A DNA stretch of 64,000 bases from Patescibacteria group bacterium. GTDB lineage: Bacteria > Patescibacteriota > Minisyncoccia > Phycocordibacterales > UBA9973. Positions 1,968 through 57,039 of this stretch are shown one piece after another (the first letter of the stretch is position 1; every line of letters starts with the position of its first letter). The translations under genes and the position numbers were made by a program. Under the pieces are notes generated by a model. The model saw nothing but the letters and a program-made list of their open reading frames with translations, did no database searches and had not been told where the DNA came from. The DNA lies in assembly GCA_038063535.1 (NCBI GenBank), contig JBBTUV010000004.1:20530-84529 (forward strand). Direction: 5' to 3'.

Positions 1968-2866
1968 TTTCCCCTTATTCCTGCTGCAAACCTGCCGATG
2001 ATCTCAGCGGCAATAGGGTCCAGCGATATGTCCTTGCGGTCGATGGTCTTCGTGGCTTTCTCCGTCGCGAGCTGGACTTGTTCTAATGCCTGCTCCCGGG
2101 TGAGCCCAGCGCCACCCTCAGCCTTTGGAGCCTGAAGGAGATTGATCATCTCGGCGCCGAACACGATCTCCACCCTCTGTCCTTTCCGCTGATAGGTCTC
2201 TCGCTCTTGAAGAGCTAGATCCTTCGCTACCTCGGGGTCAAGGGTGATCTCCGGCATGATGACTTGCCGAATGGTGACACCCCAGTGCTCCTCGCTTGCT
2301 TCACAGAGAGCTTGTTCCACTTCCTTGCCGAGCTCCTCATGCATGCCCAACACTTCCTCTTGATGTTTTCCCCGGATGCTCTTCCTGAGAATTTGCTTCC
2401 GGGTACTCTCGAGCCACCCGTCAAGGTCATCGGGGACGACGCTGAAGTATGTGTCAGGGTTGGTGATGGCATAGACCACCGATCCACCAATGGTGACGTT
2501 CACGTTGTCCTTCGTGAGAGCCTGAAGGGGGGTGAAGTTGTGGGTTTGCCTTCGGCAATCCGCCGGCTTCTTCGAGAAGGGAAGCGGAGTCCACCACCAC
2601 CCTTCAGTGAAGACAATGCCCGGCACTCGCTGCCCAAAGAGCAGGAGTTGTGCTTTCCAGCCGACTGGTACTTCCTTCCATCCAATGTCGTGCCATGTTC
2701 CCCAGCCCTGCCATGCCCAGGCCACAATCGCCGCCAGCCAAAGCAGGCGTAGAAGGCTGAGGTCTGAGAACACGGCCCAACCCAGGATCAAGAGGACCAC
2801 AACAAAACCAATCCCCAAGATCCGGTTGATACCCAAGTGACCTTCTCTCTCTTCCGTGTGTGACAT
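1964..2866 (-). CDS. SPFH/band-7 (stomatin/prohibitin-like) domain membrane protein
   Basis: An N-terminal Trp-rich double TM region is followed by an SPFH-like core (TKDNVNVTIGGSVVYAITNPDTYF ... WGVTIRQVIMPEITLDPEV). The start is moved to ATG 2866 (MSHTEEREGH) because AAGGAGA lies 7 nt upstream. The 47 extra codons in the track ORF (to 3007) look non-coding. Confidence 0.75.
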   Translation of the reverse strand: MSHTEEREGHLGINRILGIGFVVVLLILGWAVFSDLSLLRLLWLAAIVAWAWQGWGTWHDIGWKEVPVGWKAQLLLFGQRVPGIVFTEGWWWTPLPFSKKPADCRRQTHNFTPLQALTKDNVNVTIGGSVVYAITNPDTYFSVVPDDLDGWLESTRKQILRKSIRGKHQEEVLGMHEELGKEVEQALCEASEEHWGVTIRQVIMPEITLDPEVAKDLALQERETYQRKGQRVEIVFGAEMINLLQAPKAEGGAGLTREQALEQVQLATEKATKTIDRKDISLDPIAAEIIGRFAAGIRGK

Positions 2867-3041
2867 CGTTTCATCTCCTTGCGCCCGAGGCGCGTTTGTG
2901 TGCGCCCCGCTGAGCGCGGGAAATTGTGTGACAGAGTTGTCACGGTTAGCGGGCAAGGGGGTCGAAAGGGGATTGCAACCACTTAGCCCGCCAACCGTCC
3001 AATTCAATTAGAAAGGATTTCAATGTGCTAAATTCTCAAAT

Positions 3042-3070
3042 AGTATATCACAAAAGAAGCCAAAAGTCAA
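3042..3070 (-). promoter_or_regulatory. Sigma70-type promoter (TTGACT-N17-TGaTATACT) upstream of the SPFH operon
   Basis: The minus strand reads TTGACT (3070-3065), a 17-nt spacer, then TATACT (3047-3042) preceded by TGa. This implies a 5' UTR of about 170 nt before ATG 2866. Confidence 0.45.
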
Positions 3071-3179: not shown

Positions 3180-3941
3180 TTACGCGTGCTTGAGTGGCGT
3201 GGAGTGATATTTGTTCTCAAGATAGAGCTTGCGCACAACGATCACTACCAGAAGGACGAGTATCGCGAAGATGAGCCACTGGGTAAGCCCCGAAGGCATG
3301 AGTCCGTAGCTGGAGCCGTAGAGCGCGTTTGATACAAGCTGGCTCGAGGTCGGTTCGTTCTCCTGGCTTGCTCCCATCACCTCGCCGTTTTGCACGGTGC
3401 TTGTCGAGCGGGAAGTCGAGACAGAAGGAGCCTGGTAAGCTGAGGTGGAAGTGCCGGAACTTGCGCCGACCACCTCGAAGCGTACTCCGTTCGAGTATCC
3501 ACCGCCGGGGCCGGGATTATATACCGAGACATACTTTTCGTTAGCGCCGTAGAGGTCCCCAGACTGAAGATACATTACCAAGTGCGACGGGTCGATGAAA
3601 GAAGTCGTGCGGTTCAAACCGTTCCAGCGGGCCTGTGATCTCGAAGTGAAGCCGCTGCCGGTGACGTTTACGGTGAGCGAGCTTCCGCTTATATTTGCGG
3701 ACTTGGGACTCAACGAGCTTACGCTTGGGGACGGATTCTCACTGGCGGTTGTTATGACACCAGTGTCCTCATCGGTGTCCGGCTCGTTGTAAGAGCTGTA
3801 ATAACCCCGATTTGCCGCTGCTGCGCTTCGCGGGATGACCGAGAAGGCGAGGCTCACAACCAATCCGATTGCCAAAAGGATCAATATTCCCAAGCTCAAA
3901 TTCCTATTTACGCTATTTAATTTTGCCTTATTTTTACTCAT
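3180..3941 (-). CDS. Surface protein with IPT/TIG-like Ig-fold domain, N-terminal TM and C-terminal anchor
   Basis: 253-aa ORF. The N-terminal helix is LSLGILILLAIGLVVSLAF. The central segment PKSANISGSSLTVNVTGSGFTSRSQARWNG...SVYNPGPGGGYSNGVRFEVV fits the IPT/TIG pattern. Ser/Thr-rich linkers follow. The C-terminus is LMPSG + WLIFAILVLLVVIVV + RK. Confidence 0.5.
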   Translation of the reverse strand: MSKNKAKLNSVNRNLSLGILILLAIGLVVSLAFSVIPRSAAAANRGYYSSYNEPDTDEDTGVITTASENPSPSVSSLSPKSANISGSSLTVNVTGSGFTSRSQARWNGLNRTTSFIDPSHLVMYLQSGDLYGANEKYVSVYNPGPGGGYSNGVRFEVVGASSGTSTSAYQAPSVSTSRSTSTVQNGEVMGASQENEPTSSQLVSNALYGSSYGLMPSGLTQWLIFAILVLLVVIVVRKLYLENKYHSTPLKHA

Positions 3942-3977
3942 GCTAGTAGTATAGCATATTCCACCTTAAAAGTCAAG

Positions 3978-4416: not shown

Positions 4417-4435
4417 ATAAGGAAATTATATCTTA

Positions 4436-6203: not shown

Positions 6204-6640
6204 AGTGCTTCTTTTTCCTCTTCGGTAAGTTCGTATTCGGATTTTCCACCCTTCACCGGCTTGGCAAAGACGCTCATTCTCTCCCTGGCATAAAGGGAAG
6301 AAAGCACCACTCCGTCGCCGCCCTCGTCAACCATTCCGATGGCAAAACTCTGGTTCGAGCCCTGGTCCGGAAATGGATTGAAGCGCACCGTCTCAAGGCC
6401 GCGGATGCTCCCGGCGAGTTTCTTGTTCATCACCGCGATCTCGGCCCCTGATTTTTCGTTTGCCGATTTCAAACTCAAAATGTCGCTGGAGAGTTTCTCA
6501 ATGGTCTCCTCGAGGTCCTTTCCCTTTTTCCCGAGGAAGAACTTTTTCAGGCGCTTCTCGGTGCGGAATAGCCAAAAGAGTTCGACAAGAATTACGAGCC
6601 CGGCCAAAACAAAAAAAGCCATCTCAAGCTTGGTGTTCAT
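6176..6640 (-). CDS. DUF4446-like membrane-anchored protein
   Basis: 154 aa. N-terminal TM, a coiled region, then VRFNPFPDQGSNQSFAIGMVDEGGDGVVLSSLYARE, which is typical of the DUF4446 family as recalled. It overlaps the infB start by 28 nt. Confidence 0.55.
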   Translation of the reverse strand: MNTKLEMAFFVLAGLVILVELFWLFRTEKRLKKFFLGKKGKDLEETIEKLSSDILSLKSANEKSGAEIAVMNKKLAGSIRGLETVRFNPFPDQGSNQSFAIGMVDEGGDGVVLSSLYARERMSVFAKPVKGGKSEYELTEEEKEALWKAKKKTE

Positions 6641-6664
6641 GATTTTTCAATATATACTATTTCG

Positions 6665-7753
6665 GTGCGAAAATCAAAGGAAATCTATTTAGATTATGCT
6701 TCAGGTACTGAGCCGAACCCGAGCGCAATACACGAGCTTGGCGTCGGAGAGAAAAAAAAGCTCGAGGTAGCGCGCGAGTGCATTGCGCGAGTTTTTAGAG
6801 CGAGAGCGAGCGAAATAATTTTCACCTCTGGAGGCACCGAGAGCAATAATTTGGCCATTCTTGGGATGCCGAGAGGGCATGTTGTCACCACCAACATAGA
6901 ACATGCTTCAGTGCTCGAAGCTGCAAAGCAGAGGGGCAAGGTGACATTCGTTCCCGTCGAAAAAAATGGCATCGTCGACCCCCGAAAAATCCGAGACGCA
7001 CTTCGGGGTGATACGGTGCTCGTCTCGGTTATGTATGCAAACAACGAGATCGGAACTATCCAACCTATCCGAGAAATTGCAAAAGAGATCCGGCACTGGA
7101 ATAAAAATCACAGCAAAAAAATATATTTCCACACGGACGCAGTCCAGGCGGTGAATTATTTGCCCATCAATGTTGAGAAGCTCGGCGTGGATTTGATGAG
7201 CCTGAATGCTGCAAAAATTTACGGCCCGAAAGGGGTCGGTGCGCTTTACGTCCGGCAGGGTACACCGCTTCACCCGATTATGTTCGGCGGCAATCAGGAA
7301 GGGAAGCTTCGCCCAGGGACGGAAAATGTCGCCGGCGCTGAGGCACTTGCCGAAGCGCTCGAAGAAACAGAAAGAATAAAAGAAAGGGAGATAAAACGCC
7401 TCACCAAACTCCGAGATTATTTTCTCCACCAATTGGCACGGTTTGATTTTGTCGTAAACGGCGACTTGGAAGCAAGGCTTCCAAACAACGTGAATGTCTC
7501 GGTGACCAAAATCCCAAGCGATCTTTTGGTGATTGAACTCTCCGCGCGAGGGATCATGGTTTCCGGCAAGAGTGCCTGCAAATCAGGCGACGAGAAAGCT
7601 TCGCACGTACTTAGAGCGATTCGCGGGCGCGTGGCCGAGAGCGAGGGGTCCTTGCGATTTTCCCTAGGGCGGGGGACGACAAAAAAGGATATCGAGCGGA
7701 CAGTCCAGGTGCTCGCCCAGATATTTGCAAAGCTAGAAAAGTGGTATCATTAA
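6665..7753 (+). CDS. Cysteine desulfurase (class V aminotransferase, NifS/IscS-like)
   Basis: 362 aa with a GTG start. Motifs SGGTESNN, HTDAVQA, the PLP-lysine region AAKIYGPKGVGALYV and the active-site Cys loop SGKSACKSG. Confidence 0.85.
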   Translation: MRKSKEIYLDYASGTEPNPSAIHELGVGEKKKLEVARECIARVFRARASEIIFTSGGTESNNLAILGMPRGHVVTTNIEHASVLEAAKQRGKVTFVPVEKNGIVDPRKIRDALRGDTVLVSVMYANNEIGTIQPIREIAKEIRHWNKNHSKKIYFHTDAVQAVNYLPINVEKLGVDLMSLNAAKIYGPKGVGALYVRQGTPLHPIMFGGNQEGKLRPGTENVAGAEALAEALEETERIKEREIKRLTKLRDYFLHQLARFDFVVNGDLEARLPNNVNVSVTKIPSDLLVIELSARGIMVSGKSACKSGDEKASHVLRAIRGRVAESEGSLRFSLGRGTTKKDIERTVQVLAQIFAKLEKWYH

Positions 7754-7756
7754 GAA

Positions 7757-8176
7757 ATGCACGGCGAGGAGAATGTTATCAAGAAGTTTCATCCTCATCC
7801 TCTGTTTTATCTTGGCTTTTACCTTGGCGGGCCCATTCTCTCCGGGGTGGGATATTATTTCTTCACTCCGCTCGCATGGGCGGGACCCCTCATTATAATT
7901 CTTGGAGAACTCCTCCGCCGCGCGGAGACATACTATGTGACCGAAGATGGCGTGGTCCACGAATTTCATTTTCTCGCCACTCGTAGAGTTTCCGCTGAGT
8001 ATCGGAGGATACAAAACATCGAGGTCACTCAGTCGTTCTTGGAGAATTTGCTGGGGGTGGGGAATATTCACTTCGATACTGCTGGCGCCGACAGGACCGA
8101 AGTTAATTTCCGCGGGGTAAAGAATCCATACCGCATTGAAAAGATCGTCCGCGAAAGAATTGCCAGCTCAGCTTAA
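7757..8176 (+). CDS. Membrane protein with bacterial PH (YdbS/YdbT-like) domain
   Basis: 139 aa. Two N-terminal TM helices, then ETYYVTEDGVVHEFHFLATRRVSAEYRRIQNIEVTQSFLENLLGVGNIHF, a bPH_2-like pattern. Confidence 0.6.
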   Translation: MHGEENVIKKFHPHPLFYLGFYLGGPILSGVGYYFFTPLAWAGPLIIILGELLRRAETYYVTEDGVVHEFHFLATRRVSAEYRRIQNIEVTQSFLENLLGVGNIHFDTAGADRTEVNFRGVKNPYRIEKIVRERIASSA

Positions 8177-8197
8177 ATTTTGTGCTATAATGCGCTT

Positions 8198-8965
8198 ATG
8201 GACATCAAGGACCTGAATAAATCACAGCTCATTCTGCTTACCCTTTTACTTTCCTTCATCACCTCGATCGCAACCGGGATCACTACGGTCACGCTTCTTC
8301 GGGAACCTCCATCAGCCACAACTACTCCGATCAGCCGGGTGATCCGGCAGACCGTGGAGAGAATCGAACAAGTGCAGGGCAAGACCGTGACCGAGACGAT
8401 TGTCGTCAAAGAAGAAGATCTGGTGGTGGACACGATCGCGAACAATCAGTCCGCGGTTTTCTCCGTTTCTAAGGAGGGATTTAACGAGCTCGGAGCTCAA
8501 GCAGAAGTTTCCGCCGGCCGCGGGTTTGCGGTGACTCCCGAGGGAATTGTCGTCGTTGATTCTGCCCAAGTGTTCGAAGGAGGGACGTATTATCTTACGA
8601 ACGCTAGCGGAAAATTCCATGCCGCATTCCTTGCAGCAAATAACGCGGGTTTCAGCCTGCTTGAACTCGGGGCGCCATTTGAGGAAGGAGTAAAGGCAAC
8701 CTTCAGCGTTCCCGTCGCCGGCGATCTCTCTGCGATGAAGCCCGGGCAGAAGGTCATAATCTTGGGTGAGACGATCACTTCTTTCATTCTTGACAGCAAC
8801 CAGAACATGAAGATAAATACCAGCAAGTCAAATGCCGGAGGATTGGTTCTCAATCTTGACGGCCAAGCGCTCGGCATTGCGCTTACAAGCGAGACCGCAT
8901 CCTTTGCTCCAATTTCGGCGATAGACGAGGCAGTCAAGGCTCTTGCCCCTCCCCCAAATCCCTAA
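8198..8965 (+). CDS. Membrane-anchored trypsin-fold (HtrA-like) protein lacking the catalytic triad
   Basis: The start is moved to ATG 8198 because TGcTATAAT (8183-8191) lies 6 nt upstream. An N-terminal TM is followed by an HtrA-like layout, but the His box reads VDSAQV and the GNSGGP box reads SNAGGLV. Confidence 0.5.
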
Positions 8966-8971
8966 AAAAGC

Positions 8972-9000
8972 TTTACAAATTGAAATTTATAGTATATAAT
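8972..9000 (+). promoter_or_regulatory. Near-consensus sigma70 promoter of clpB (TTTACA-N17-TATAAT)
   Basis: TTTACA at 8972-8977, a 17-nt spacer, then TATAAT at 8995-9000. The clpB ATG at 9010 lies 9 nt after the -10 box. Confidence 0.6.
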
Positions 9001-9009
9001 GGCCCGAAA

Positions 9010-11700
9010 ATGCCTCCCCTTAACCGTTTTACAACCAAAGCGAAAGACGCGATCAAGAAAGCTCACGAGCTGGCGATAGAGCGCGGCCAAAACCACGTCT
9101 CTTCGCTTCATCTCTTGGCAGCGCTCTTGCTCCAGGAAGAGAGCATGGTGAACTCGATTCTCGACAAGATCGAGGTGGATACGATGTTGCTTACCGACAA
9201 CGTGCTTGAGGCGATCGAACTCCCAGAAACCCGCAGCACACTCTCGCCTTCCTATCAGATATATTTGAACCCTGACCTCGCGCAAGTGATCGAGGCAAGC
9301 GCGAAGCTCGCTGAATATCTCAAAGACGATTTTGTTTCGACCGAGCACCTTTTCATCGCGATGCTCGAGGTTCCCGGGGAGGCGAAGGAAACTCTCTCCC
9401 GTCACCGTATCGGCAAAGATGGGGTCATGAAGGTGCTTGAGGAACTTCGCCGCGAGAATGTTACTGATGTCTCTGAGCCGAAACGCTTCCGCCTGCTTTT
9501 AAAATACACCCGCAACCTTACCAAACTTGCGAAAGAAGACAAGCTTGACCCGGTGATCGGCCGCGAAAACGAGATCAGCCGGATCATGCAGATCCTTTCC
9601 CGCCGGACGAAGAACAACCCGATTCTAATCGGAGAAGCCGGCACCGGGAAGACCGCGGTGGTAGAAGGTTTGGCTCAGCGGATCTCGAAAAACAGCGTTC
9701 CGGAGTCGCTACGGGATAAGGAACTTGTTTCTCTTGACCTTGGCTCTTTGATCGCCGGCACGAAGTACCGCGGCGAATTCGAGGAGAGGCTCAAGGGCAT
9801 AATGAAAGAGATCGAACGCGCGGAAGGGAAGGTCATTCTTTTTATCGATGAGATTCACACGATTGTCGGCGCCGGAGGCGCGGAGGGGACACTCGATGCC
9901 TCAAACATGCTCAAACCCGCACTCTCGCGCGGAGAGCTTCGCGCGATCGGGGCGACAACTCTGAAAGAATACCAGCGACACATCGAAAAGGATCCCGCGC
10001 TCGCGCGGCGTTTCCAGCCGGTCTACATCGATGAGCCTTCAGTTGAGGACGCGATTGCGATCCTTCGCGGCCTCAAAGAAAAATATGAGCTGTTTCATGG
10101 AGTCCGTATCACCGATGATAGTATCCTCGCGGCGGTAAATCTCTCCGCGCGTTACATCACCAACCGATTCCTGCCGGACAAAGCGGTGGACTTGATCGAC
10201 GAAGCATCTTCCTCTCTGAAAATTGCGCTCGAGAACAAACCCCCGGTGCTTGAAGACGCCCACCAGCGGATCATGCGTCTGGAGATAGAAAAGGAGGCAC
10301 TGAAAAAAGAAACCGAGAATAAAGAAGCCAGGAAGCGTATAAAGGAGATCGACAAGGAGATCGGAAACCTGAACGAAAAAACAAAAGAGCTCGAGCTCAA
10401 GTGGCAGAACGAGCGCAGGGCGGTGATCGAGATCCGTTCGATCAAGAAGGACCTCGAGACGATGCGCCTGGAGGCCGAGAACGCGGAGGCCCGGGCGGAC
10501 CTCGCGCGCGCAGCAGAGATCCGCTACGGAAAGATCCCGGAAGCGAAGAAAGAACTGGAGACGAAACTTACACGCTTGAAAAAACTGCAAAAGTCGCGCC
10601 GCATCCTCAAAGAAGAAATTACCGCCGAGGATATTGCCGAAGTTGTTTCTCGCTGGACCGGGATACCGCTTACCAAGATGCTGGAGGAAGAGCGGGCGAA
10701 ACTCGAACGGATGGAGGAGGAACTCCGGAAGCGCGTGGTTGGCCAAGATGAGGCGATCAAGCGGGTGGCGGATGTTATTCGCCGCTCCCGCGCGGGCATT
10801 TCCGATCCCTCGCGGCCGATCGGCTCGTTCATATTCTTGGGGCCGACCGGTGTTGGGAAAACAGAGCTTACCAAAGCGCTCGGGCAGTTCATGTTCAACT
10901 CTGACTTAGCCGTCATTCGCGTGGATATGAGTGAGTACATGGAGCGACATAGCATTTCGAAATTAATTGGCTCGCCCCCAGGCTATGTCGGATACGAAGA
11001 AGCGGGTCAGCTGACCGAAGCGGTGCGGCACCGGCCGTATGCAGTTGTCCTTTTCGACGAAGTGGAGAAGGCGCATCCGGAAGTTTTCAATATGCTCCTT
11101 CAGGTGATCGACGAGGGCAGGCTCACCGACGGCAAAGGCCGGGTGGTCAATTTCAAGAACACCATTATTATTCTCACTTCGAACATCGGTTCGCAATTCG
11201 TTGAGAAAATGGAATCGATCGGGTTTTCCAATAATTCGGATATGCAGGATTACGGCCGAACCAAGGAGAAAGTGCTCGAGGCATTGAAGGACCACTTCCG
11301 CCCGGAATTCTTAAACCGACTAGACGAGATCATTGTCTTCGATATTCTCTCGCCTGCGGCGATCAGGGAGATCGTGGATCTGCGCGTTCAAGTGGTGAAA
11401 GACAGGCTCGAGGGCAAAGGCATCGCTTTCAAAATTTCGGAGGAAGCGCTCCTCTTCCTGGCGCAGGCTGGCTATGACCCGCATTACGGCGCGCGGCCCT
11501 TGAATCGCCTGATCCAGAACAAGATATTAAATCCTGTCGCCACTCATATCATCTCAAACGAAGTAAAGAAAGGGGACACGGTAGTGGTTTCCGCTAAAGC
11601 GGGCGAGCTCGTCATCCAAACTCAAAAAGGCGGCCCCGCCAAAGGACGGGCAGGTAGCGTTAAAAGCCCGATCCGCGTCCAGCCGAAATCTTCAGCCTAG
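9010..11700 (+). CDS. clpB: ATP-dependent chaperone ClpB
   Basis: Clp N-domain repeats, two AAA+ modules ([18 protein letters not shown]) and a long coiled-coil middle domain. The start is set at ATG 9010 (MPPLNRFT) because the track start at 8980 falls inside the promoter. Confidence 0.9.
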
Positions 11701-15095: not shown

Positions 15096-15107
15096 TAAAA
15101 TATAGAA

Positions 15108-15284
15108 ATGCCCATTTTCCCCATAGTTTTCATGCTCTTCGTCCTCCCGTTCCTGATCATCCAGGAGGGGTATAAGATGCTCAAGGGTGCTCTCTCCCGC
15201 CCGGGTTTCGCCAGGAATTTTCTCTATATTTTGGTGCTCTTGCTTGCGCTAGTCGGCATCTCTCTCTTTCTCGCCGGCTTCTAG
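15108..15284 (+). CDS. Possible 58-aa two-helix membrane mini-protein (below ORF-track cutoff)
   Basis: The ORF from ATG 15108 to TAG 15282-15284 was hand-translated as MPIFPIVFMLFVLPFLIIQEGYKMLKGALSRPGFARNFLYILVLLLALVGISLFLAGF. It fills an otherwise empty 200-nt gap. Confidence 0.35.
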   Translation: MPIFPIVFMLFVLPFLIIQEGYKMLKGALSRPGFARNFLYILVLLLALVGISLFLAGF

Positions 15285-15313
15285 ATTTCCTCTTTTTATA
15301 CTAAAATATAGGC

Positions 15314-16666
15314 ATGGACGAGCTTTTTGATTTCCTCGAGCATCATCTCCCCAAGATCCTCCTGGTCGTTATCGTCGCATTCCTTGCCTGGGTGCTTTTC
15401 CGAGCCGAACTTCTTTTTCCGCTTCTGGGTACGATTATCCTCGGCTGGATCGGCTGGAAGGTATGGGTGCATTACGTCCAGCAAGACTTCATCTCCGGCA
15501 TCGAGTGGGTGCTCCTTGAGATAGTGCCACCGCGGGAGGTCATGCGCTCTCCGAAAGCGATGGAGCTTTTTATCACCAACGCTCTCTATCACCTTTCTTT
15601 CAAAGGGGGCAAAGAAGAGTTCTGGCAGGGCGCGGTCTGGTTCTGGCATTCGCTCGAGATCGCTTCGATCGAGGGGCAGGTGCATTTTTATGTCCGCAGT
15701 CCGTCGCGCCTCCGGGGCCTCATTGAAACACAGTTGTACGCGCAGTACCCCCAGGCGCAGGTGCGGGTGGCGGAAGATTACACGCTCGCCGTGCCGGAAA
15801 TTTCCCAAAATAGTGAATGGAACGGCTGGGGTTGTGAATTCAATCTTGTAAAAAGCGAGGCTTACCCGATCAAGACCTACACCGATTTCGGTTTGGACAA
15901 AGATCCCAAAGAAGAATACAAAGTGGACCCGATCTCTCCGGTGATCGAGTTCTTCGGCGCACTCGGCAAGAATGAGCAGGCGTGGCTCCAGTTTGTGATC
16001 AAGCCCGCGGGAGCCACCGGCGGCACGAAACATAAACGGGATTGGGTGAACCAGGCGAACGACACCATGAAAGATTTGCTCCGGCCCTACACTCGTACGC
16101 AAAGAGGCATAGAAGAGGGAGAAACTGCACTCGAGATCCGCGCGCCGAAATTCTACGACAACGTTATCACCGCTATGAACATGAAGACAGGCAAGCTCGG
16201 TTTCGAAACGGGCATCCGGCTCGTCTACGTGGCCAAGAAAGAACACTTCAGCATGAACAATCGCCGCGACATCCGTCTTATTTTCCGCCAATACGCCAAG
16301 CCCGATTGCAACGAGCTCCTGCGCATAAATTCCGCGCAGGCGGACCGCTACAGCGGCGTCTTTTCCGCCTCGCCGAAGACCGTCATGATGCTCGCAAACA
16401 GGATGGTGCATGAATTCCGCGACCGGGCATTCTTTCACCTCCCACTCCGGCACCACATTTTCTCCCAAAAGTATTGGAGCTGGCCCTTTCCGACGTTTAT
16501 CTCCATAGACGGCATCATCAAGGCTTACATTCATCACCATACCTTTATCCTGAACACCGAAGAGCTCGCGACCCTCTGGCATTTCCCGGGCCAGATCCTG
16601 AAAGTCCCGTCCCTCGAGCGCATCGAATCGAAAGAAGCTTCTCCGCCTCCAAACTTGCCGACATGA
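15314..16666 (+). CDS. Hypothetical membrane-anchored protein (CPR-type, resembles N-terminal domain of CPR VirD4/TraG-like proteins)
   Basis: 450 aa. Two N-terminal TM helices, then LLEIVPPREVMRSPKAMELFITNALYHL ... SLEIASIEGQVHFYVRSPSRLRGLIETQLYAQYPQAQV. No Walker A motif was found. Its stop overlaps the mltG start (ATGA at 16663-16666). Confidence 0.5.
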   Translation: MDELFDFLEHHLPKILLVVIVAFLAWVLFRAELLFPLLGTIILGWIGWKVWVHYVQQDFISGIEWVLLEIVPPREVMRSPKAMELFITNALYHLSFKGGKEEFWQGAVWFWHSLEIASIEGQVHFYVRSPSRLRGLIETQLYAQYPQAQVRVAEDYTLAVPEISQNSEWNGWGCEFNLVKSEAYPIKTYTDFGLDKDPKEEYKVDPISPVIEFFGALGKNEQAWLQFVIKPAGATGGTKHKRDWVNQANDTMKDLLRPYTRTQRGIEEGETALEIRAPKFYDNVITAMNMKTGKLGFETGIRLVYVAKKEHFSMNNRRDIRLIFRQYAKPDCNELLRINSAQADRYSGVFSASPKTVMMLANRMVHEFRDRAFFHLPLRHHIFSQKYWSWPFPTFISIDGIIKAYIHHHTFILNTEELATLWHFPGQILKVPSLERIESKEASPPPNLPT

Positions 16667-18074: not shown

Positions 18075-18094
18075 CGTAGTATAATTAGGAAGTT

Positions 18095-18454
18095 ATGTCG
18101 GAAGGACCACCGAAAAATCCGAGAGATCGAATTCTCCATGAAAAGGAGCTCGCAAGGCATGGTGTCATCAGAGATCCTTTCAATGACTGGGCCGCAGTTT
18201 TAATGTTTGCTCGCCCCGGTTCGGACTCAGGTCTTCTTGCAGCGATCCCCACTTACGAAGCGAGCGTTCGCGCCCATCCTCTTTTTGCGCCGCATGCCGA
18301 TTTTATTCTTGAGGCGAGCGATCCGGAGAAAGTCCGTAAGTACAACGAACTTGCGGCAATTTACAACCAGGAACTTCCTGCCATCAAAAGATCAAAGGAC
18401 TATAAGCGGGCGAACGAGTTGGCACACGAAGCCATGGCACTTATCAAGCTCTAA
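18095..18454 (+). CDS. Hypothetical protein
   Basis: 119-aa ORF. TATAAT at 18080-18085 lies 9 nt upstream. No family was recognised. Confidence 0.45.
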   Translation: MSEGPPKNPRDRILHEKELARHGVIRDPFNDWAAVLMFARPGSDSGLLAAIPTYEASVRAHPLFAPHADFILEASDPEKVRKYNELAAIYNQELPAIKRSKDYKRANELAHEAMALIKL

Positions 18455-18617
18455 AATTAAAATTCATGCCCGAGCGATTCAATTTTTTCAAAAACCCGAA
18501 CGGCGCCTCGCGCCTAGTGGGTTATACTATGATGTAAGTAATCGACCTGTCCCGTATGAGGCTTCGCCTTCGTTCGGGACTACGTAATACTTTAAGTAAA
18601 TGTTATAATATATTCCT

Positions 18618-19013
18618 ATGAGCACAGCATCTCTCCTCTATCTCTTCGGGACACTAGGCGCGCTCGACACCCTTTATCTTATATATCACAAGATCCGGGG
18701 GACTGATGTTGCCTGCCCTTTCTTTCCGAAAGAGTGGTGTCGGACGGTGCAATACAGCCCCCAGAGTAAAACGCTCGGTATTCCCAATTCGTTTCTCGGC
18801 TTTGGCATGTATGTTGCGATTCTCGCGCTCACCTATCTCCATGCCGGCGGGGCAGTGGCCTTTTGGCCGATTCAGGCGATCGTAACTTTCGGCTTTTTGT
18901 TTTCCCTCTACTTTACTTACGTGCAGGCCTTTGTGCTTCGGGCGTTCTGCACCTGGTGCGTCATTTCCGCGATAAATTTCACAATCATGTTTCTCGCGGT
19001 CTGGTTTTCATAA
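18618..19013 (+). CDS. Vitamin K epoxide reductase (VKOR) family membrane protein
   Basis: 131 aa with four TM helices, the Cys pair CPFFPKEWC and the redox motif CTWCVISA near the last helix. TGtTATAAT lies at 18601-18609. Confidence 0.7.
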   Translation: MSTASLLYLFGTLGALDTLYLIYHKIRGTDVACPFFPKEWCRTVQYSPQSKTLGIPNSFLGFGMYVAILALTYLHAGGAVAFWPIQAIVTFGFLFSLYFTYVQAFVLRAFCTWCVISAINFTIMFLAVWFS

Positions 19014-19292: not shown

Positions 19293-19390
19293 CCCTACAT
19301 CCCTACAAACTGGAGTTTGTTAGGATGTTGTTGCACTCTTGATATGTTACAATCTTCCGTTTTTCCACTTTTAAATGATATAATCCCGGT

Positions 19391-19594
19391 ATGAAAGGTT
19401 ATGTGGACAATATCGAGAAGCTCGCGCTTGCGAACGACAATTTTCGCAAGGTCCTTATCGTAAACGGGAGGGCGGAGCCGATGAAGCTCTATACTCTCTA
19501 TATGCCCCCGCACCACAGAGACGGGGTTGTCCACAAGACGAAGGCGGAAGCCGAAGCGGACACCGAGCACTGGCAGGGAGAGACGACCGAATAA
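19391..19594 (+). CDS. Cupin-like remnant (N- and C-terminal ends present, barrel core missing)
   Basis: 67 aa. GYVDNIEKLALANDNFRKVL resembles the N-terminus of small cupin_2 proteins, and MKLYTLYMPPHHRDGVVHKTKAEA resembles their C-terminus. The metal-binding core of about 45 aa between them is absent. TGaTATAAT at 19376-19384 lies 6 nt upstream. Confidence 0.4.
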   Translation: MKGYVDNIEKLALANDNFRKVLIVNGRAEPMKLYTLYMPPHHRDGVVHKTKAEAEADTEHWQGETTE

Positions 19595-20536: not shown

Positions 20537-20554
20537 CTCTGGTATAATCTCGGG

Positions 20555-21610
20555 GTGAAAAAGGTGGTTTTTGTAGGATTATCCGGCGGGGTTGATAGTG
20601 CCGTTTCGGCGGCGCTCTTGAAACAGAAAGGCTACGAAGTAGTCGGGGTCTTTATGCAGACTTGGCATCCGGAATTTTTGGAATGCAACGAGGAGGAAGA
20701 GCGCCGCGACGCTATGCGCGTCGCGGCTGCGCTCGACATCCCGTTCCTTACTTTCGATTTTGAAAAAGTTTATAAAAAAGAAGTGGCGGACTATATGATA
20801 GCCGAGTACCGCGCAGGACGGACGCCGAACCCGGATGTGATGTGCAACAAGGAAGTGAAGTTCGGCGCGTTTTTGCGCAAGGCGCTCGCGATGGGGGCTG
20901 ACTATGTTGCGACGGGGCATTACGCCAAGCTACGCAAATATAGCAAAAATTCGCCTTTGCTACACTTGCTGCGCGGGCGCGACGGCGCCAAGGACCAAAG
21001 CTATTTTCTTTGGACGCTCACGCAAAAACAGTTAAGTAAAATCTTGTTTCCCGTGGGGGATCTGAAAAAGAGCGAAGTGCGCAGGCTCGCGAAGAAGCTC
21101 GGGCTTCCGGTCTCGGAGAAAAAGGACAGCCAAGGCATCTGCTTCCTCGGCGAAGTTGATCTCAAAAAATTTCTTAAGCATTACATCAAAGAAAAAAAAG
21201 GAAAAGTTGTGAGCGATATGGGGGAGGTGATCGGCCGGCACGACGGAGTCTTTTTTCATACGCTCGGGGAGCGGCGCGGTTTTACTATCACCAAGAAAAG
21301 TCCAAAGGACAGGCCTTACTATATCGTCGGTAAGAATGTAAAAAAGAATATTTTAGTCGTTTCACAGAGATTTCCCCCTGACAAGGGGGAAGCAAAAGGG
21401 GTTCTGGAACTTAAAAATATTAATTGGATTTCGGGAGTTCCCAAAGAAAATAAAAAGTATACAGCGCAAGTCAGGTACCACGGGGAAAAAGTCCCATGCA
21501 AAATAAGCGGGAGGGGAGTCGTCTTCGAAAAGCCGGTCCTTGCGGCCGCGGGGCAGTCGGCGGTGATCTATGACGGGGATGTTTGCCTGGGCGGGGGAGT
21601 TATCATATAA
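20555..21610 (+). CDS. mnmA: tRNA 2-thiouridine(34) synthase MnmA
   Basis: 351 aa with a GTG start. PP-loop GLSGGVDSAV, NPDVMCNKEVKF and ATGHYA. Confidence 0.9.
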   Translation: MKKVVFVGLSGGVDSAVSAALLKQKGYEVVGVFMQTWHPEFLECNEEEERRDAMRVAAALDIPFLTFDFEKVYKKEVADYMIAEYRAGRTPNPDVMCNKEVKFGAFLRKALAMGADYVATGHYAKLRKYSKNSPLLHLLRGRDGAKDQSYFLWTLTQKQLSKILFPVGDLKKSEVRRLAKKLGLPVSEKKDSQGICFLGEVDLKKFLKHYIKEKKGKVVSDMGEVIGRHDGVFFHTLGERRGFTITKKSPKDRPYYIVGKNVKKNILVVSQRFPPDKGEAKGVLELKNINWISGVPKENKKYTAQVRYHGEKVPCKISGRGVVFEKPVLAAAGQSAVIYDGDVCLGGGVII

Positions 21611-21617
21611 TTAGACA

Positions 21618-22061
21618 ATGGAACAATTTTTCTCTATCGACGGCGATATAGTTCTCCGACTCGTGGTTGCGCTCGCGCTCGGCATGGTGATCGGCGCGGA
21701 GCGGTATCTCGTGCATAAAGAAGCGGGAGTAAAGACGCATGCGCTCATCTCGCTCGGCTCGGCGATCTTCGTGATCATCGGCCTCGCCGGGCCGGAGCCG
21801 GCGCGTGTCGCTTCGCAAATCATCGTCGGCATCGGATTTCTCGGAGCCGGCTCGATCATTTTCCAAGGTTCACGCTTGACCGGGCTTACTACGGCTGTGG
21901 GCTTTTGGGTTACCGCCGGCATCGGCATGGCGGCGGGGTTTAAATTCTATTCGCTTGCCGTTTTGGCGACAATCCTTACGCTTTTCGTGCTCGTCGCCGG
22001 CAATTTTATAGAGAAACCGATCAGAAAAATTTCAGAAGAGGCAGATCAAAACAAGGTTTAG
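21618..22061 (+). CDS. MgtC/SapB family membrane protein
   Basis: 147 aa. RLVVALALGMVIGAERYLVHKEAGVKTH...GIGFLGAGSI...GLTTAVGFWVTAGIGMAAG. Confidence 0.75.
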   Translation: MEQFFSIDGDIVLRLVVALALGMVIGAERYLVHKEAGVKTHALISLGSAIFVIIGLAGPEPARVASQIIVGIGFLGAGSIIFQGSRLTGLTTAVGFWVTAGIGMAAGFKFYSLAVLATILTLFVLVAGNFIEKPIRKISEEADQNKV

Positions 22062-22062: not shown

Positions 22063-23673
22063 ATGGATGCAAATGAGGTCAGAGATAAGTTCCTAAAGTT
22101 TTTCGAAAAGAGAGGTCATAAAATAATTCCTTCTTCTTCACTTGTGCCGGAAAACGACCCGTCGGTGCTTTTTACCACCGCCGGCATGCAGCAATTCAAG
22201 CCCTACTACACGGCGCCCGAGAACGCGGTCCGTGATTTCGGCGCGAAGAACGTCGCCTCGGCGCAGAAATGTGTCCGTACCTCGGACATCGACGAAGTCG
22301 GCGACGACACTCATCTGACATTTTTCGAAATGCTCGGGAATTTCTCTTTCGGCGGATATTGGAAAGAAGAAGCAATAAAATACGCGCACGAATTTATCAC
22401 CAAAGAGCTCGGGCTCAGGATAGATTACGTTTCTGTTTTCGAAGGAGATGCAGAAACTTCTGCCGACGAAGAATCGCGAGCAATTTGGGCGGAAATCGAT
22501 TCGAGCCTGGAAATCAAGAATCACAATCGAGCAGATAATTTCTGGGGTCCGACCGGGGAGGAAGGCCCCTGCGGTCCGACGACGGAGATATACGTAAATG
22601 GAGTGGAAATTTGGAATCTTGTTTTCAACGAATTTTATAAAACCAAAGACGGAAAGTATGAAAATCTAGAAACAAAAGGAGTAGATACAGGCATGGGTCT
22701 AGAGCGTCTCTTGGTGCAGATCCAAAAGAAAACTAATGTCTATGAGACCGATCTCTTTGGCGGAGAGAAAACGAGGGAAGAAAGAATTATCGCCGACCAT
22801 GTAAAGGCATCACTTTTTTTAATAGCTGACGGCGTGAGGCCTTCGAACACCGGTGCGGGCTACGTGCTTCGCCGTCTGATACGTCGAGCAGTCCGGCTTT
22901 CTGAAAGACCGCTGGCGGAGGCCGCGAACAAAATAAAAAATATATATTTAAATATATACGATCTTGATGACGAGGGAGTTATCGAGAAAGAAGAAAAAAA
23001 ATTCCGGGAAACACTCGCGAAGGGGCTCAAGGAGTTCGAGCGCGGCACGGACCCCTTCGTTCTTTTCACGACCTACGGCTTTCCGATCGAGCTTACGCTT
23101 GAGCTTGCAAAAGAAAAAGGAAAAATAATCAACCTCGAGAGTTTCGAGCAAAAAATGGTGGAGCATCAGAAGCTCTCGCAAACCTCGAGTGCCGGCATGT
23201 TCAAAGGGGGGCTTGCCAACAGCGAACCGAAAACCATTCGCAATCATACTGCGCATCACCTGCTCCTCGCTGCGCTTCAAGCAATTCTAGGGAAAAGCGT
23301 AAAACAGCGCGGCTCAAACATAAACGAAGAGCGCTTGCGGATGGATTTTTCATACGAGCGCAAATTGAGCGATGAAGAAAAGAAAAAAGTCGAAGACTGG
23401 GTAAACGACAAGGTCAAGCGGGGTTTAAAAGTAGAGAGGCGGGAGATGCCGCGCGAAGAAGCTGAGAAGCTCGGCGCGGAGATGGAATTCGGCGCGAAAT
23501 ATCCGGCGATTGTGTCCATATATATGATACTCGACGAGAAAGGTAACCCTCTTTCGAAAGAATTCTGCGGCGGACCGCATGTCGGAAACACCCGGGAGCT
23601 TGGAGAGTTCAAGATCCAAAAAGAAGAGGCGGTCTCGGCCGGGATTCGCAGGATAAAGGCTATTTTGCTATAA
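22063..23673 (+). CDS. alaS: Alanine--tRNA ligase, compact (no C-Ala domain)
   Basis: 536 aa. The class II core is FTTAGMQQFKPYY, FFEMLGNFSFG and VDTGMGLERL. The editing-domain His motifs are HTAHHLL and CGGPHV. The protein ends right after the editing domain. Confidence 0.85.
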   Translation: MDANEVRDKFLKFFEKRGHKIIPSSSLVPENDPSVLFTTAGMQQFKPYYTAPENAVRDFGAKNVASAQKCVRTSDIDEVGDDTHLTFFEMLGNFSFGGYWKEEAIKYAHEFITKELGLRIDYVSVFEGDAETSADEESRAIWAEIDSSLEIKNHNRADNFWGPTGEEGPCGPTTEIYVNGVEIWNLVFNEFYKTKDGKYENLETKGVDTGMGLERLLVQIQKKTNVYETDLFGGEKTREERIIADHVKASLFLIADGVRPSNTGAGYVLRRLIRRAVRLSERPLAEAANKIKNIYLNIYDLDDEGVIEKEEKKFRETLAKGLKEFERGTDPFVLFTTYGFPIELTLELAKEKGKIINLESFEQKMVEHQKLSQTSSAGMFKGGLANSEPKTIRNHTAHHLLLAALQAILGKSVKQRGSNINEERLRMDFSYERKLSDEEKKKVEDWVNDKVKRGLKVERREMPREEAEKLGAEMEFGAKYPAIVSIYMILDEKGNPLSKEFCGGPHVGNTRELGEFKIQKEEAVSAGIRRIKAILL

Positions 23674-23684
23674 TAAAAGGGATT

Positions 23685-24851
23685 ATGGGAATTTTTTCTC
23701 GCGGGAGTAAAAAGACATTGGCGGCGGTTTTTGACATTGGTTCGTCTTCCGTCGGGGGAGCGCTAGTCGCGCTTTCGAAAGGTAAGGCGCCGGAGATACT
23801 CTTTGCCGCGCGTGAGCCGATACTCGTTCTTCCTGAACTTGACCCGGATCAATTCCTTTCGCTTACCCTGAAATCTCTCGAGGCCGTGGCGGCGGCTGTC
23901 GCGGCCAGTAAAGCAGGAGCACCGGAGAAAATTTTCGCTGTCCTCGGTTCACCCTGGTACAGCTCGCAGACTCGGATGATCCGGATGGAGAAGAACAGCG
24001 AATTTGCTTTTTCCGCGAAGTTGGCGGACGAACTGGTCGCCAAGGAACTTACTCAATTTAGAGAGGAGCACGAGCTCAAATATCTCGCTGACGAGGAAAA
24101 GGTTGTGCCGATCGAACTGAAAAACATGAGGATCGCCTTAAACGGATATGTTACGCCCGAGCCGATCGGCAAACGCGCTTCAAAGCTCGAGATGACGATA
24201 TTCGTTTCAATGAGCGGCCGGCAATTTCTCAACAAAGTGAGAGAAACGATGGGAAAACATTTTCACCGGGACGAGGTTAAGTTCTCGTCTTTCCTTATGG
24301 CGTCTTTCACCGCGGTGCGTGATCTTTATCCAGCTTCGCAGTTTCTCCTCTTAGATGGGGGAGGCGAGCTGACCACGGTTTCGCTCGTGAAAGGGGATAT
24401 TCTCTCCGAGTCGGGCACCTTTGCCATTGGGCACAACTTTATTATCCGGGAAACAGCACGGGAGCTGGGAAAGACCCTTCCCGACGCGAAGACACTTTTC
24501 ATGCTTTTCAAAGAGGGGCATGAGAGCGAACGGCAGAAAGTGAAGCTTGAGAATGCGATCGGCGCAGCGCGGGCCAAATGGCTCGAAGCTTTCCAGAAGT
24601 CGCTTGCCACTCTCTCGGGAGATATCTCCATTCCCTCGGATGTTTATGTGACGGCAGACCCGGACTTCGCCGAATTTTTCGCCGATGCGATCAAGGGCGA
24701 GCAACTCTCGCAGTACACGCTGACCGATTCGAAACTCCAGGTCCATCTCTTCAATCCGGATTCGATCACCGGCAAAATGTCGTTTTCGGCGAACGCCCGG
24801 CATGACCCGATCCTCTCGCTTGAGTCGGTTTATATTAATCGCTATCTTTGA
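23685..24851 (+). CDS. Actin-fold ATPase-like protein (FtsA/PilM-like)
   Basis: 388 aa. The phosphate-1-like motif is AAVFDIGSSSVGGALV and the phosphate-2-like motif is LLLDGGGELTTVSLV. TGcTATAAT (23666-23674) overlaps the alaS stop. Confidence 0.5.
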   Translation: MGIFSRGSKKTLAAVFDIGSSSVGGALVALSKGKAPEILFAAREPILVLPELDPDQFLSLTLKSLEAVAAAVAASKAGAPEKIFAVLGSPWYSSQTRMIRMEKNSEFAFSAKLADELVAKELTQFREEHELKYLADEEKVVPIELKNMRIALNGYVTPEPIGKRASKLEMTIFVSMSGRQFLNKVRETMGKHFHRDEVKFSSFLMASFTAVRDLYPASQFLLLDGGGELTTVSLVKGDILSESGTFAIGHNFIIRETARELGKTLPDAKTLFMLFKEGHESERQKVKLENAIGAARAKWLEAFQKSLATLSGDISIPSDVYVTADPDFAEFFADAIKGEQLSQYTLTDSKLQVHLFNPDSITGKMSFSANARHDPILSLESVYINRYL

Positions 24852-24863
24852 TAAAATATACCA

Positions 24864-27430: not shown

Positions 27431-27432
27431 AT

Positions 27433-30152: not shown

Positions 30153-30172
30153 TTCTGTGTTAGTATAAAATT

Positions 30173-33451: not shown

Positions 33452-38688
<5,237 letters not shown>

Positions 38689-40138: not shown

Positions 40139-40155
40139 TATGGTAGGATATTTTC

Positions 40156-43994: not shown

Positions 43995-44095
43995 GCATCT
44001 AACTTCTTCACTTTAGTAAACTAGAGTACTTTACTTGGATAAAGTCAACAGGTTGGACCATCGCGGGGCTTCTTGTTTTATGGTAAAATATTTAC

Positions 44096-53619: not shown

Positions 53620-53649
53620 CCGCTTTTTTTATGCTAAAATACTTTTACC

Positions 53650-57022: not shown

Positions 57023-57039
57023 TGTGTTACTATTATAAT

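Follow-up and report, generated by a model that had tools for sequence, protein, structure and literature searches.

Extended −10 boxes at a fixed short distance before start codons point to leaderless expression in a Paceibacteria-type bacterium

The window and its start-proximal −10 boxes

We analysed a stretch of 64,000 nucleotides from a Patescibacteria group bacterium (NCBI GenBank assembly GCA_038063535.1, contig JBBTUV010000004.1, positions 20,530 to 84,529 of the forward strand; hereafter the window), in which many genes carry a hexamer resembling the −10 promoter element, often with the TGn extension of extended −10 promoters, only 6–10 nt upstream of the start codon. The GC content of the window is about 50% and its genes are packed very tightly. 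Its ClpB is 75–83% identical to proteins from metagenome-assembled genomes of Paceibacterota, Nomurabacteria and Patescibacteria, and the window shares with the ClpB-related loci a tRNA-Cys/Leu/Lys/Leu cluster about 5 kb upstream of clpB and a tRNA-Tyr downstream of it. The host is a bacterium of the Candidate Phyla Radiation (CPR), of the Parcubacteria/Paceibacteria type. Contigs from Hainich groundwater well H41 (ERZ1292630/33) and several sequencing runs carry genes identical to those of the window. Open reading frames (ORFs) read cleanly with TGA as stop, that is, with genetic code 11, and the set that we curated contains 71 coding sequences. Searching the window against Rfam at a permissive threshold returned six tRNAs and nothing else.

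We defined a box as TAnnnT with at least 4 of 6 matches to TATAAT and a gap of 6–10 nt to the start codon. By this definition 30 of the 71 curated genes carry a box. Fifteen of these had been listed in a previous reading made from the letters of the window (the sequence-only reading), and all of those hexamers and start codons were found in place, with gaps of 6–10 nt; TATAAT occurs 8 times among them and TAAAAT 3 times, the rest being TAGAAT, TAGTAT and TAGGAT. The span that it had given to the feature, 8183–9012, covers its first two examples alone, whereas the feature itself extends over the whole window. Positions, strand, gene, motif, gap and start codon of all sites are given below; related loci are designated by L numbers throughout.

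Sites listed in the sequence-only reading:
8183..8200 (+), 255-aa protein: TGcTATAAT, gap 6, ATG 8198
8972..9012 (+), clpB: TTTACA-17-TATAAT, gap 9, ATG 9010
18080..18097 (+), gene at ATG 18095: TATAAT, gap 9
18601..18620 (+), VKOR family: TGtTATAAT, gap 8, ATG 18618
19376..19393 (+), 67-aa ORF: TGaTATAAT, gap 6, ATG 19391
20540..20557 (+), mnmA: TGgTATAAT, gap 6, GTG 20555
23666..23687 (+), gene at ATG 23685: TGcTATAAT enclosing the upstream stop TAA 23671–23673, gap 10
24849..24866 (+), gene at ATG 24864: TGaTAAAAT, the TGA being the stop of the upstream gene (24849–24851), gap 6
30158..30175 (+), grpE: TGtTAGTAT, gap 6, ATG 30173
40141..40158 (+), purE: TGgTAGGAT, gap 6, ATG 40156
44081..44098 (+), gene at ATG 44096: TGgTAAAAT, gap 6
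49432..49449 (−), dnaB: TGcTAGAAT, gap 6, ATG 49434
49505..49520 (+), trpS: TATAAT, gap 7, ATG 49518
53632..53652 (+), aspS: TGcTAAAAT, gap 9, GTG 53650; directly after the terminator 53578–53605
62637..62654 (+), mraY: TGtTATAAT, gap 6, ATG 62652

Additional sites:
3939..3976 (−), choice-of-anchor Z repeat-domain protein (253 aa, gene 3180–3941, NCBIfam match): TTGACT-17-TGcTATACT, gap 6, ATG 3941
6638..6654 (−), DUF4446: TATATT 6654–6649, gap 8, ATG 6640; divergent from 6665, −10 boxes overlapping
6653..6667 (+), NifS/IscS-type cysteine desulfurase: TATACT, gap 6, GTG 6665; 24-nt divergent spacer
7742..7759 (+), bPH_2 protein: TGgTATCAT, gap 6, ATG 7757; upstream stop TAA 7751–7753 in the discriminator
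15096..15110 (+), 58-aa ORF: TAAAAT adjoining the upstream stop TAG (15093–15095), gap 6, ATG 15108
15302..15316 (+), 450-aa protein: TAAAAT, gap 6, ATG 15314; L037 alike
21606..21620 (+), MgtC family: TATAAT enclosing the mnmA stop TAA 21608–21610, gap 6, ATG 21618; L025 alike
37139..37157 (−), guaB-type inosine-monophosphate dehydrogenase: TGaTATACT, gap 7, ATG 37141; divergent from guaA, 23-nt spacer
37131..37167 (+), guaA: TTGAAA-16-TATCAT, gap 6, ATG 37165
44443..44457 (+), gene at ATG 44455: TATAAT, gap 6; start overlaps the upstream stop (TAATG), promoter or stop-start coupling
55055..55070 (+), riboflavin kinase domain: TAAAAT, gap 7, ATG 55068; overlaps the aspS stop (ATGA), coupling being the alternative
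57020..57037 (−), ribose-phosphate diphosphokinase: TATAAT, gap 9, ATG 57022; 17-nt divergent spacer
57025..57042 (+), pterin-4a-carbinolamine dehydratase: TGtTACTAT, gap 6, ATG 57040; −10 overlaps that of 57022(−)
57369..57405 (+), leucyl aminopeptidase: TTGCCT-16-TATAAT, gap 6, ATG 57403
60877..60893 (+), gene at ATG 60891: TATAGT, gap 8; upstream stop TAA 2 nt before the ATG, coupling being the alternative

Box before an untranslated gene:
4417..4430 (−), tRNA-Cys, first of a five-tRNA cluster: TATAAT 4430–4425, 8 nt before the mature 5' end

The gap is 6 nt at 19 of the 30 sites, 7 nt at three, 8 nt at three, 9 nt at four and 10 nt at one, and the start codons are 27 ATG and three GTG, with no TTG. 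The TGn extension is present at 16 of the 30 sites; among all hexamers of this kind in the window its frequency is 5.7% (P = 8e-13). The starts themselves agree with several independent sources. Two corrections made in the sequence-only reading, from TTG 8180 to ATG 8198 and from TTG 8980 to ATG 9010, proved right when judged by conserved N-termini and by independent gene calls, the longest-ORF starts being off by 6 and 10 codons: the N-terminus MDIKDLNK of gene 8198 is conserved in 23 related loci and that of ClpB in about 40, and the gene calls stored with public contigs give the same starts for five genes. In trpS and aspS residue 1 falls on position 1 of full-length family models; residues 6–507 of guaA align with model positions 1–512 and residues 8–149 of DUF4446 with model positions 8–149, and the DnaB, MnmA and PurE starts agree with their family models within a few residues.

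We divided the curated genes into 41 uncoupled ones, which have either a divergent upstream neighbour or a distance to it of no less than 5 nt, and 30 tightly coupled ones, which overlap the preceding same-strand stop or lie at most 4 nt from it. An unfiltered profile of the uncoupled genes shows T at −15 in 21/41, G at −14 in 12/41, T at −12 in 26/41, A at −11 in 31/41, A or T at −10, A at −9 and −8, and T at −7 in 25/41, which gives the consensus TGnTAtaaT with the hexamer at −12 to −7 from the start codon; the coupled genes are merely A-rich. A box was found in 26 of the 41 uncoupled genes, compared with 5.8 ± 2.2 when the upstream 30 nt of each gene were shuffled, and 26 was reached in none of 5000 shuffles. 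At the same threshold of 4 of 6 matches other gap windows gave 3–8 genes, except gaps 11–15, which reached 16; at 5 of 6 matches they gave 1–5 genes, compared with 23. Internal in-frame ATG or GTG codons carry a box in 3.8% of cases. The enrichment of −10 matches at −12 to −7 from the start, on which the sequence-only reading had made its proposal depend, was seen in the window against shuffled controls and in related loci against control gaps.

The same signal was seen when starting from the motif. Fourteen of the 37 exact TATAAT hexamers on the two strands are followed, at a gap of 5–10 nt, by an ATG or GTG that opens an ORF of at least 60 codons' worth of amino acids (60 aa); seven of these lie at gap 6 and none at gaps 1–5 or 11–14, an excess over other gaps with a Poisson P of 2e-8. 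The 19 other permutations of three A and three T gave only 1–8 cases per 22–146 sites. With an automatic ORF set, in which every candidate start within the first 20 codons was considered, gap 6 accounts for 13 genes and other gaps for about one gene each.

Several candidates were discarded. A second −10-like peak at gap 34 consists nearly entirely of internal in-frame codons and was treated as chance. The pair TATAAT 12215/GTG 12228 lies inside typA, whose start is ATG 12195 (residues 3–596 correspond to model positions 1–594), and the pairs from a blind scan at 21053, 21663, 27469, 41641, 43251, 50043, 58225 and 7111(−) are gene-internal and were dropped.

Promoters, relatives and the weighing of alternatives

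A conserved A/T-rich box before start codons could be a promoter, or it could act in translation. The box is scarce before coupled genes (4/30, compared with 26/41 of the others; Fisher P = 2.6e-5) and it is present before the tRNA cluster; both results point to a promoter and not to a general ribosome-binding site. Neither in the window nor in relatives is there a box before infB, rbfA or the genes of the ribosomal-protein operon. Sigma-70 makes contact with just the positions that are conserved, among them the TG of the extended −10. A weak or missing −35 is expected where the TGn contact compensates, and the window sites have both traits of extended −10 promoters, TG at −15/−14 and a dispensable −35. 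A −35 match of at least 4/6 at a spacer of 16–18 nt is more frequent than expected, at 9 of the 30 sites against 11% (P = 0.004), with recognisable hexamers at clpB (TTTACA), 3941 (TTGACT), guaA (TTGAAA), 57403 and others. Full −35/−10 matches also exceed those in shuffled sequence in each 20-kb segment (22 vs 13.2 ± 3.6, 26 vs 15.4 ± 3.1 and 31 vs 21.2 ± 4.2).

Boxes also precede tRNA genes elsewhere. In relatives, −10 boxes lie 8–12 nt before a subset of tRNA genes (L006, L010, L013, L015, L018, L021, L029 and L041), counted from the mature 5' end, and the primary transcripts of those tRNAs would carry a 5' leader of about 1–5 nt for RNase P. Separately, a TGTGTTATTTTAT box before the tRNA-Tyr (window 12095–12125, minus strand) is conserved in L002, L025 and L037.

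Three divergent pairs show how closely the boxes are fitted to the starts. The spacers between start codons are 17 nt (57022/57040), 23 nt (37141/37165) and 24 nt (6640/6665), and therefore leave no room for leaders, and in each pair the two −10 hexamers, one per strand, share 2 bp. The predicted transcription start sites (TSSs) are 15–23 bp apart, and the first bases of the start codons 57022 and 57040 are separated by 18 bp. Two polymerases could not sit on both overlapping −10 elements simultaneously, and this suggests an inherent competition, for example between guaB and guaA. On the same strand, upstream stop codons serve as parts of the promoters: twice a TAA is enclosed in TATAAT, once a TGA supplies the TGn, and once a TAG borders on the hexamer. 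The mnmA/mgtC arrangement, with the stop in the promoter, is kept in L025.

The most serious alternative is that the box is a translation-initiation element independent of the Shine–Dalgarno (SD) sequence, acting on polycistronic mRNAs either as an A/U-rich or S1-binding site, as in group B of the GeneMarkS-2 classification, or as a reinitiation signal. Many boxes lie only 7–30 nt behind a same-strand gene and intrinsic terminators occur at chance frequency, so that these start codons should be present within longer transcripts too; with SD motifs no more frequent than background, the organism must have some form of internal initiation that does not depend on the SD; and the regions upstream of coupled genes are A-rich. 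This explanation is nonetheless quite improbable. In group B the motif stands before every gene, whether first or internal (PMC6028130), whereas the window's box is found at few coupled genes; T at −12, A at −11, T at −7 and TG at −15/−14 are exactly the positions that sigma-70 reads; the box stands before untranslated genes, at gap 8 for tRNA-Cys and gaps 8–12 for the tRNAs of relatives; −35 hexamers lie at 16–18 nt in clpB, guaA, 3941 and 57403, and also in the clpB of relatives; and it occurs in divergent spacers of 17–24 nt, where no upstream transcript exists.

We then compared the window with related loci. Among 23 loci with orthologues of gene 8198 (25–66% protein identity), 21 have a −10 at gap 5–10 and 13 of them the TGn, the surrounding DNA being otherwise unconserved. 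Among 72 metagenome loci with aspS orthologues (54–88% identity), 39 have a −10 at gap 6–10 and 29 the TGn, and visual inspection of the 50 nt before the start revealed no SD. Several relatives of clpB have TTGACA or TTGACT, 16–17 nt, TAnnnT, 6–9 nt and ATG. The closest relatives also keep the arrangement at the divergent DUF4446/nifS pair, mgtC, gene 15314 and the RNase T gene. Since TATAAT counts per related locus were too noisy in low-GC relatives, we used profiles centred on gene starts, and one automatic procedure for all four groups of loci:

Window, 64 genes: −10 (at least 5/6) at gap 6–9, 36%, control gap 16–19, 6%; SD 4-mer at gap 5–10, 14%, control 18–23, 8%
Close CPR loci, 314 genes: −10 25%, control (6–9 moved to 16–19) 8%; SD 11%, control 7%
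Distant CPR loci, 201 genes: −10 15%, control 6%; SD 12%, control 9%
Non-CPR loci, 479 genes: −10 4%, control 4%; SD 32%, control 10%

In the ClpB-anchored CPR loci (515 genes) the −10 peak at gap 6 comprises 43 genes over a background of about 9, and in an AspS-anchored set (80 metagenome loci, 391 genes) there are 48 at gap 6 and 24 at gap 7 over a background of about 7, with only a faint SD bump. The 479 genes of the non-CPR loci show no −10 peak and a strong SD peak instead. A −10 at leaderless distance is a property of the lineage, not specific to the window, and its signal seems to weaken with distance inside the CPR.

Two observations on these loci may be recorded here. Upstream of clpB in L031, L032 and L065, which are among the more distant CPR loci, CIRCE-like (controlling inverted repeat of chaperone expression) repeats, TTAGCACTC-N9-GAGTGCTAA, the HrcA operator, overlap the promoter, and related repeats are found in L034 and L038; in L031 it extends across the −10 element of a leaderless promoter, TTGACA-18-TAGAGT-6-ATG. 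The repeat is absent from the clpB promoter of the window. Also, the record titles of L030, L034, L038 and many Saccharibacteria-titled records in L001–L029 (Gammaproteobacteria, Saccharibacteria) conflict with their ClpB similarity, and those of L001–L029 also with the tRNA/clpB synteny of Paceibacteria-type bins; they are probably taxonomic mislabels.

Across 49 bacteria with mapped TSSs the centre of the TSS lies 7 bp after the −10 element (PMC12641261), so that with a gap of 6 nt +1 would coincide with the first letter of the start codon. Thirty sites are accordingly spaced such that, at the sequence level, they are predicted to give a 5'-terminal AUG or GUG with no SD. The predicted distance from TSS to start is too short to accommodate an SD, and the 4-mer SD matches that do occur (18095, 40156) lie within the hexamer or adjoin it. 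The proposal of the sequence-only reading that transcription starts at or next to the start codon, leaving no room for an SD, thus finds support in the position of the boxes, the start codons, the absent SD peak and the conservation. Its description of expression as largely leaderless holds for about 63% of the genes that are not tightly coupled and for about 42% of all genes; at gaps of 8–10 nt the predicted leader is 2–4 nt long instead of nil.

We consider it highly probable that extended −10 promoters read by sigma-70 yield leaderless mRNAs here and that downstream genes are translated by stop-start coupling. Most transcription units (about two thirds carry the box) would begin at a sigma-70-type promoter with an extended −10 (TGnTAnnnT) and a weak or absent −35, from which RNA polymerase would start on the initial A or G of the coding sequence or 1–4 nt ahead of it. 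The resulting mRNA would have neither 5' untranslated region (UTR) nor SD, and its 5'-terminal AUG or GUG would presumably be bound directly by ribosomes and initiator tRNA. Direct ribosome binding of 5'-terminal start codons has been shown in Actinobacteria and Deinococcus. Most later genes of a unit overlap or abut the preceding stop (ATGA, TAATG, TAAnATG) and are probably translated by termination-reinitiation coupling; a classical SD survives only where the leader is long and at a small number of internal operon genes. In a genome this compact many promoters fall inside the last codons of the upstream gene and can include its stop. Where transcription starts, how ribosomes are recruited and how coupling operates are in all this deduced from the DNA.

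Several points weigh against this reading. Every TSS position is a prediction, and 11 of the 30 gaps are of 7–10 nt, which predicts leaders of 1–4 nt. Some curated starts were picked after the motif had been seen, and the motif-first and automatic-ORF analyses, which are free of that bias, are noisier; for mnmA, an alternative start exists at GTG 20564, behind GGTGA. The −35 elements at these sites are weak. Four box sites (44455, 55068, 60891 and 7757) are also stop-start adjacent, and coupling alone could explain them. Convincing terminators are found at 1477–1506, 3160–3135(−) and 53578–53605; with terminators at chance frequency behind so many same-strand neighbours, read-through mRNAs would carry these starts internally without an SD, and either a second initiation route must exist or read-through transcripts would go untranslated.

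These points bear on a further alternative, in which the boxes are real promoters and the transcripts are not functionally leaderless, either because initiation lies further upstream or downstream than supposed or because translation proceeds mainly from read-through polycistronic mRNA, to which the internal promoters add little. The longer gaps and the few terminators speak for it, as does Nanosynbacter lyticus, the one CPR species with TSS data (RNA-seq-derived), in which the distance from −10 to TSS is more variable (PMC12641261). However, the gap distribution peaks sharply at 6 nt here and again in two independent sets of relatives, a pattern that makes little sense if the TSS was not selected to fall on the start codon's first base; no start codon other than ATG or GTG is used; and the same signature was confirmed as leaderless by differential RNA sequencing (dRNA-seq) in Deinococcus deserti and M. 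tuberculosis (PMC6028130). We therefore judge this alternative highly improbable, and retain the leaderless one. That the pattern is a by-product of A/T-rich intergenic composition, packed upstream stop codons and starts picked to fit is hardly credible: stop codons do lie in or beside boxes (21608–21610, 23671–23673, 24849–24851, 15093–15095) and part of the start set was curated with the motif in view, but shuffled sequences and other gap windows give fewer boxes, the other A3T3 permutations show no such link to ORF starts, 13 sites belong to divergent or distant genes that have no upstream stop close by, and the signal is kept in orthologues and absent from identically analysed non-CPR loci.

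Shine-Dalgarno sites, coupled genes and leader RNAs

In the automatic ORF set of the window the 4-mers GGAG, GAGG and AGGA show no positional peak. The 30 tightly coupled genes have for the most part neither box nor SD; about 40% of the genes appear to rely on stop-start overlap or adjacency, and termination-reinitiation coupling is the likely mode of their translation. There is an SD minority, as the sequence-only reading had pointed out: the SPFH gene (2866), rpsD (27433) and the gene at 51046 have AAGGAG, and a dacB-like gene (60019) has a weaker purine-rich site. Three of them serve as contrast to the box sites:

2866..3070 (−), SPFH gene: TTGACT-17-TGaTATACT, 170-nt structured leader, SD AAGGAG, ATG 2866
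27415..27435 (+), rpsD (identity from the sequence-only reading): SD AAGGAG, ATG 27433, internal operon gene, no −10 box
51030..51048 (+), gene at ATG 51046: SD AAGGAG 6 nt upstream; 288-nt spacer with TTGACT-18-TAGTAT at 50816–50845

A clear SD is thus found behind long leaders (SPFH and 51046, and in relatives also a small ORF corresponding to window start 53245) and at a few internal genes (rpsD, purN, purD). No 16S 3' end from a CPR bacterium was found in the window or in all 167 loci searched, the only 16S found being alphaproteobacterial; the strong AAGGAG sites at 2866, 27433 and 51046 suggest that the anti-SD has been retained. The 170-nt SPFH leader folds with z = −5.2 against shuffled sequence, carries its AAGGAG in the last hairpin and has no Rfam match; it may be a cis-regulatory RNA, and is one of few long leaders in the window.

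A gene-free stretch of 640 nt precedes aspS (region 53027–53612, plus strand). It contains a conserved promoter, TTGTCA-17-TGaTACAGT with a gap of 6 nt to the RNA, and after it a conserved leader RNA of about 150 nt (about 53062–53215, plus strand). This RNA has a stem, ACAGGCAAAUA/UAUUUGCGCUGU, invariant single-stranded blocks, GGGCUGAUAUUUGCGCUGUAAAAA and ACUUACAACUCAAACACC, and at its end a terminator-like hairpin, the pairing of which is kept by compensatory changes (7 of 27 pairs changed on both sides). It is followed by a small ORF (ATG 53245) with WF and PCG motifs common to relatives, in which it has a GGAGG-type SD, and then by the strong terminator 53578–53605. We had considered the 640 nt as one large non-coding RNA, since rejected because alignment with relatives splits the stretch into leader RNA and small ORF. 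The leader RNA is in synteny upstream of aspS in eight relatives (L125, L093, L128, L141, L138, L096, L088 and L097). Rfam gives no match for it at E values as high as 0.1, and folding of the complete stretch scores z = −8.8. We propose it as a candidate for a new riboswitch-like or attenuator cis-regulatory RNA.

Some other genes of the window have leaders, or concern initiation. ATG 14064 (region 14012–15095, plus strand) has a perfect consensus TTGACA-16-TATAAT (12/12) 24 nt upstream and is among the few short-leadered genes; its 343-aa product joins a sigma-70 region 4 (residues 18–68) and a HARE-HTH domain (220–280), an unusual pairing. Not leaderless either is typA (12140–12197, plus strand; ATG 12195), which has a TAAAAT box 37 nt upstream and a hairpin, AAAAAGCCCCCGGGCTTTTT, ending 4 nt before its ATG. 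A similar hairpin is found in L025. Its role may be that of an attenuator, or of a terminator in common with the divergent tRNA-Tyr side. Translation initiation factor IF2 (4725–6203, minus strand) is short (492 aa); its alignment to TIGR00487, a model of 587 positions, begins at position 79, so that it lacks the N-terminal extension; its gene infB, like rbfA, has neither −10 box nor SD in the window or in relatives. In the ribosomal-protein operon, rpmJ starts near 26496 (region 26382–26620, plus strand) and is missed by ORF lists with a minimum of 60 aa, the listed ORF 26525–26986 over-extends rpsM, and a TTGTAA-17-TATAAT at 26388–26416 would give the operon a leader of about 70–80 nt.

Known systems and meaning for the lineage

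The closest known pattern is group C of GeneMarkS-2, in which a Pribnow box lies 6–8 nt before leaderless first genes; 90% of Actinobacteria and 97% of Deinococcus-Thermus are of this group, 25–50% of transcripts are predicted to be leaderless, and 167 of 262 verified D. deserti genes are leaderless (Lomsadze et al. 2018, PMC6028130). The window resembles it in the localisation of TAnnnT about 6–8 nt before the starts of first genes (mode at gap 6, 19/30), in a dual architecture of leaderless first genes and other signals for the rest, and in a comparable predicted leaderless share (30 of 71 genes, 26 of 41 uncoupled ones). It differs in several respects. CPR or Paceibacteria are not among the phyla named in the main text of that study (PMC6028130), and the GC content is about 50% in the window and 30–50% in relatives, whereas group C genomes with code 11 are almost all of high GC (bioRxiv 10.1101/2022.07.25.500264). 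Internal genes of group C have SD sites, whereas here the SD is at background: its 4-mers form only a faint peak in CPR relatives and none in the window. Most internal genes begin inside or next to the stop codon before them, a box being present in only 4 of the 30 coupled ones. Many promoters of the window are, besides, embedded in the 3' end or the stop codon of the preceding same-strand gene.

Mollicutes, like these CPR bacteria, have reduced genomes of low to mid GC, and their promoters are dominated by the −10 element. They use genetic code 4 and fall in group C, with 30–60% of transcripts predicted to be leaderless; they differ from the window's host in phylum and in code (the window reads with code 11), and the MetaGeneMark-2 preprint gives SD-consensus models of the ribosome-binding site for group C genomes (bioRxiv 10.1101/2022.07.25.500264). 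Low SD usage and A-rich sequence before starts are shared with group B of the Bacteroidota. The group B motif is described as preceding all genes and as one that cannot be a promoter (PMC6028130), whereas the box in the window has the sigma-70 −10 signature, avoids coupled genes and precedes tRNAs; a single motif before first and internal genes alike is not what we find.

As promoters, the sites are like the extended −10 class in having TGn (16/30) and a weak or missing −35 (Mitchell et al. 2003, as cited in PMC12641261). The E. coli representatives are not tied to the start codon; here the distance to the start is fixed. In bidirectional promoters with overlapping −10 elements, divergent TSSs lie 7–29 bp apart (Warman et al., bioRxiv 10.1101/2020.01.31.928960), and the hexamer geometry of the three divergent pairs fits this class, the predicted TSS spacings falling within that range. 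Unlike those promoters, both arms would here yield leaderless housekeeping mRNAs (guaB/guaA, prs/pterin dehydratase), and the intergenic region would be nothing but a shared core promoter.

In the literature searched, which lacked most subscription journals, we found no report of leaderless expression in CPR or Patescibacteria, and the only CPR TSS set that we met, RNA-seq-derived and from Nanosynbacter lyticus, was used without comment on leaders (PMC12641261). Other phyla are known to have the leaderless mechanism; its occurrence in this lineage would, as far as we found, be new. Beyond the window, we tentatively propose, at slightly less than even confidence, that CPR bacteria of the Paceibacteria type have nearly abandoned the SD, and express their genes from dense extended −10 promoters, about one per two genes and often incorporating the stop codon of the gene before, as leaderless mRNAs, with the remaining genes coupled stop to start.

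If so, this would be an expression architecture common to a whole lineage and undescribed for the CPR, which would join two other large bacterial lineages in which leaderless initiation predominates, as the first of them with ultrasmall cells, mid-to-low GC and reduced ribosomes. The advance would be one of taxonomic scope and genome organisation, with no new principle. In practice, default start prediction based on the SD would be mis-calling starts in CPR genome bins. The −10 box allows gene starts and small ORFs to be placed in such bins and promoters to be predicted gene by gene, and the rare SD genes behind long leaders stand out as candidates for RNA regulation. Leaderless initiation is often seen as the ancestral mode of translation, and CPR bacteria have reduced ribosomes and few regulators. 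Were a large CPR class shown to be leaderless and coupled, with almost no SD, a minimal translation apparatus would be tied to a minimal mRNA architecture.

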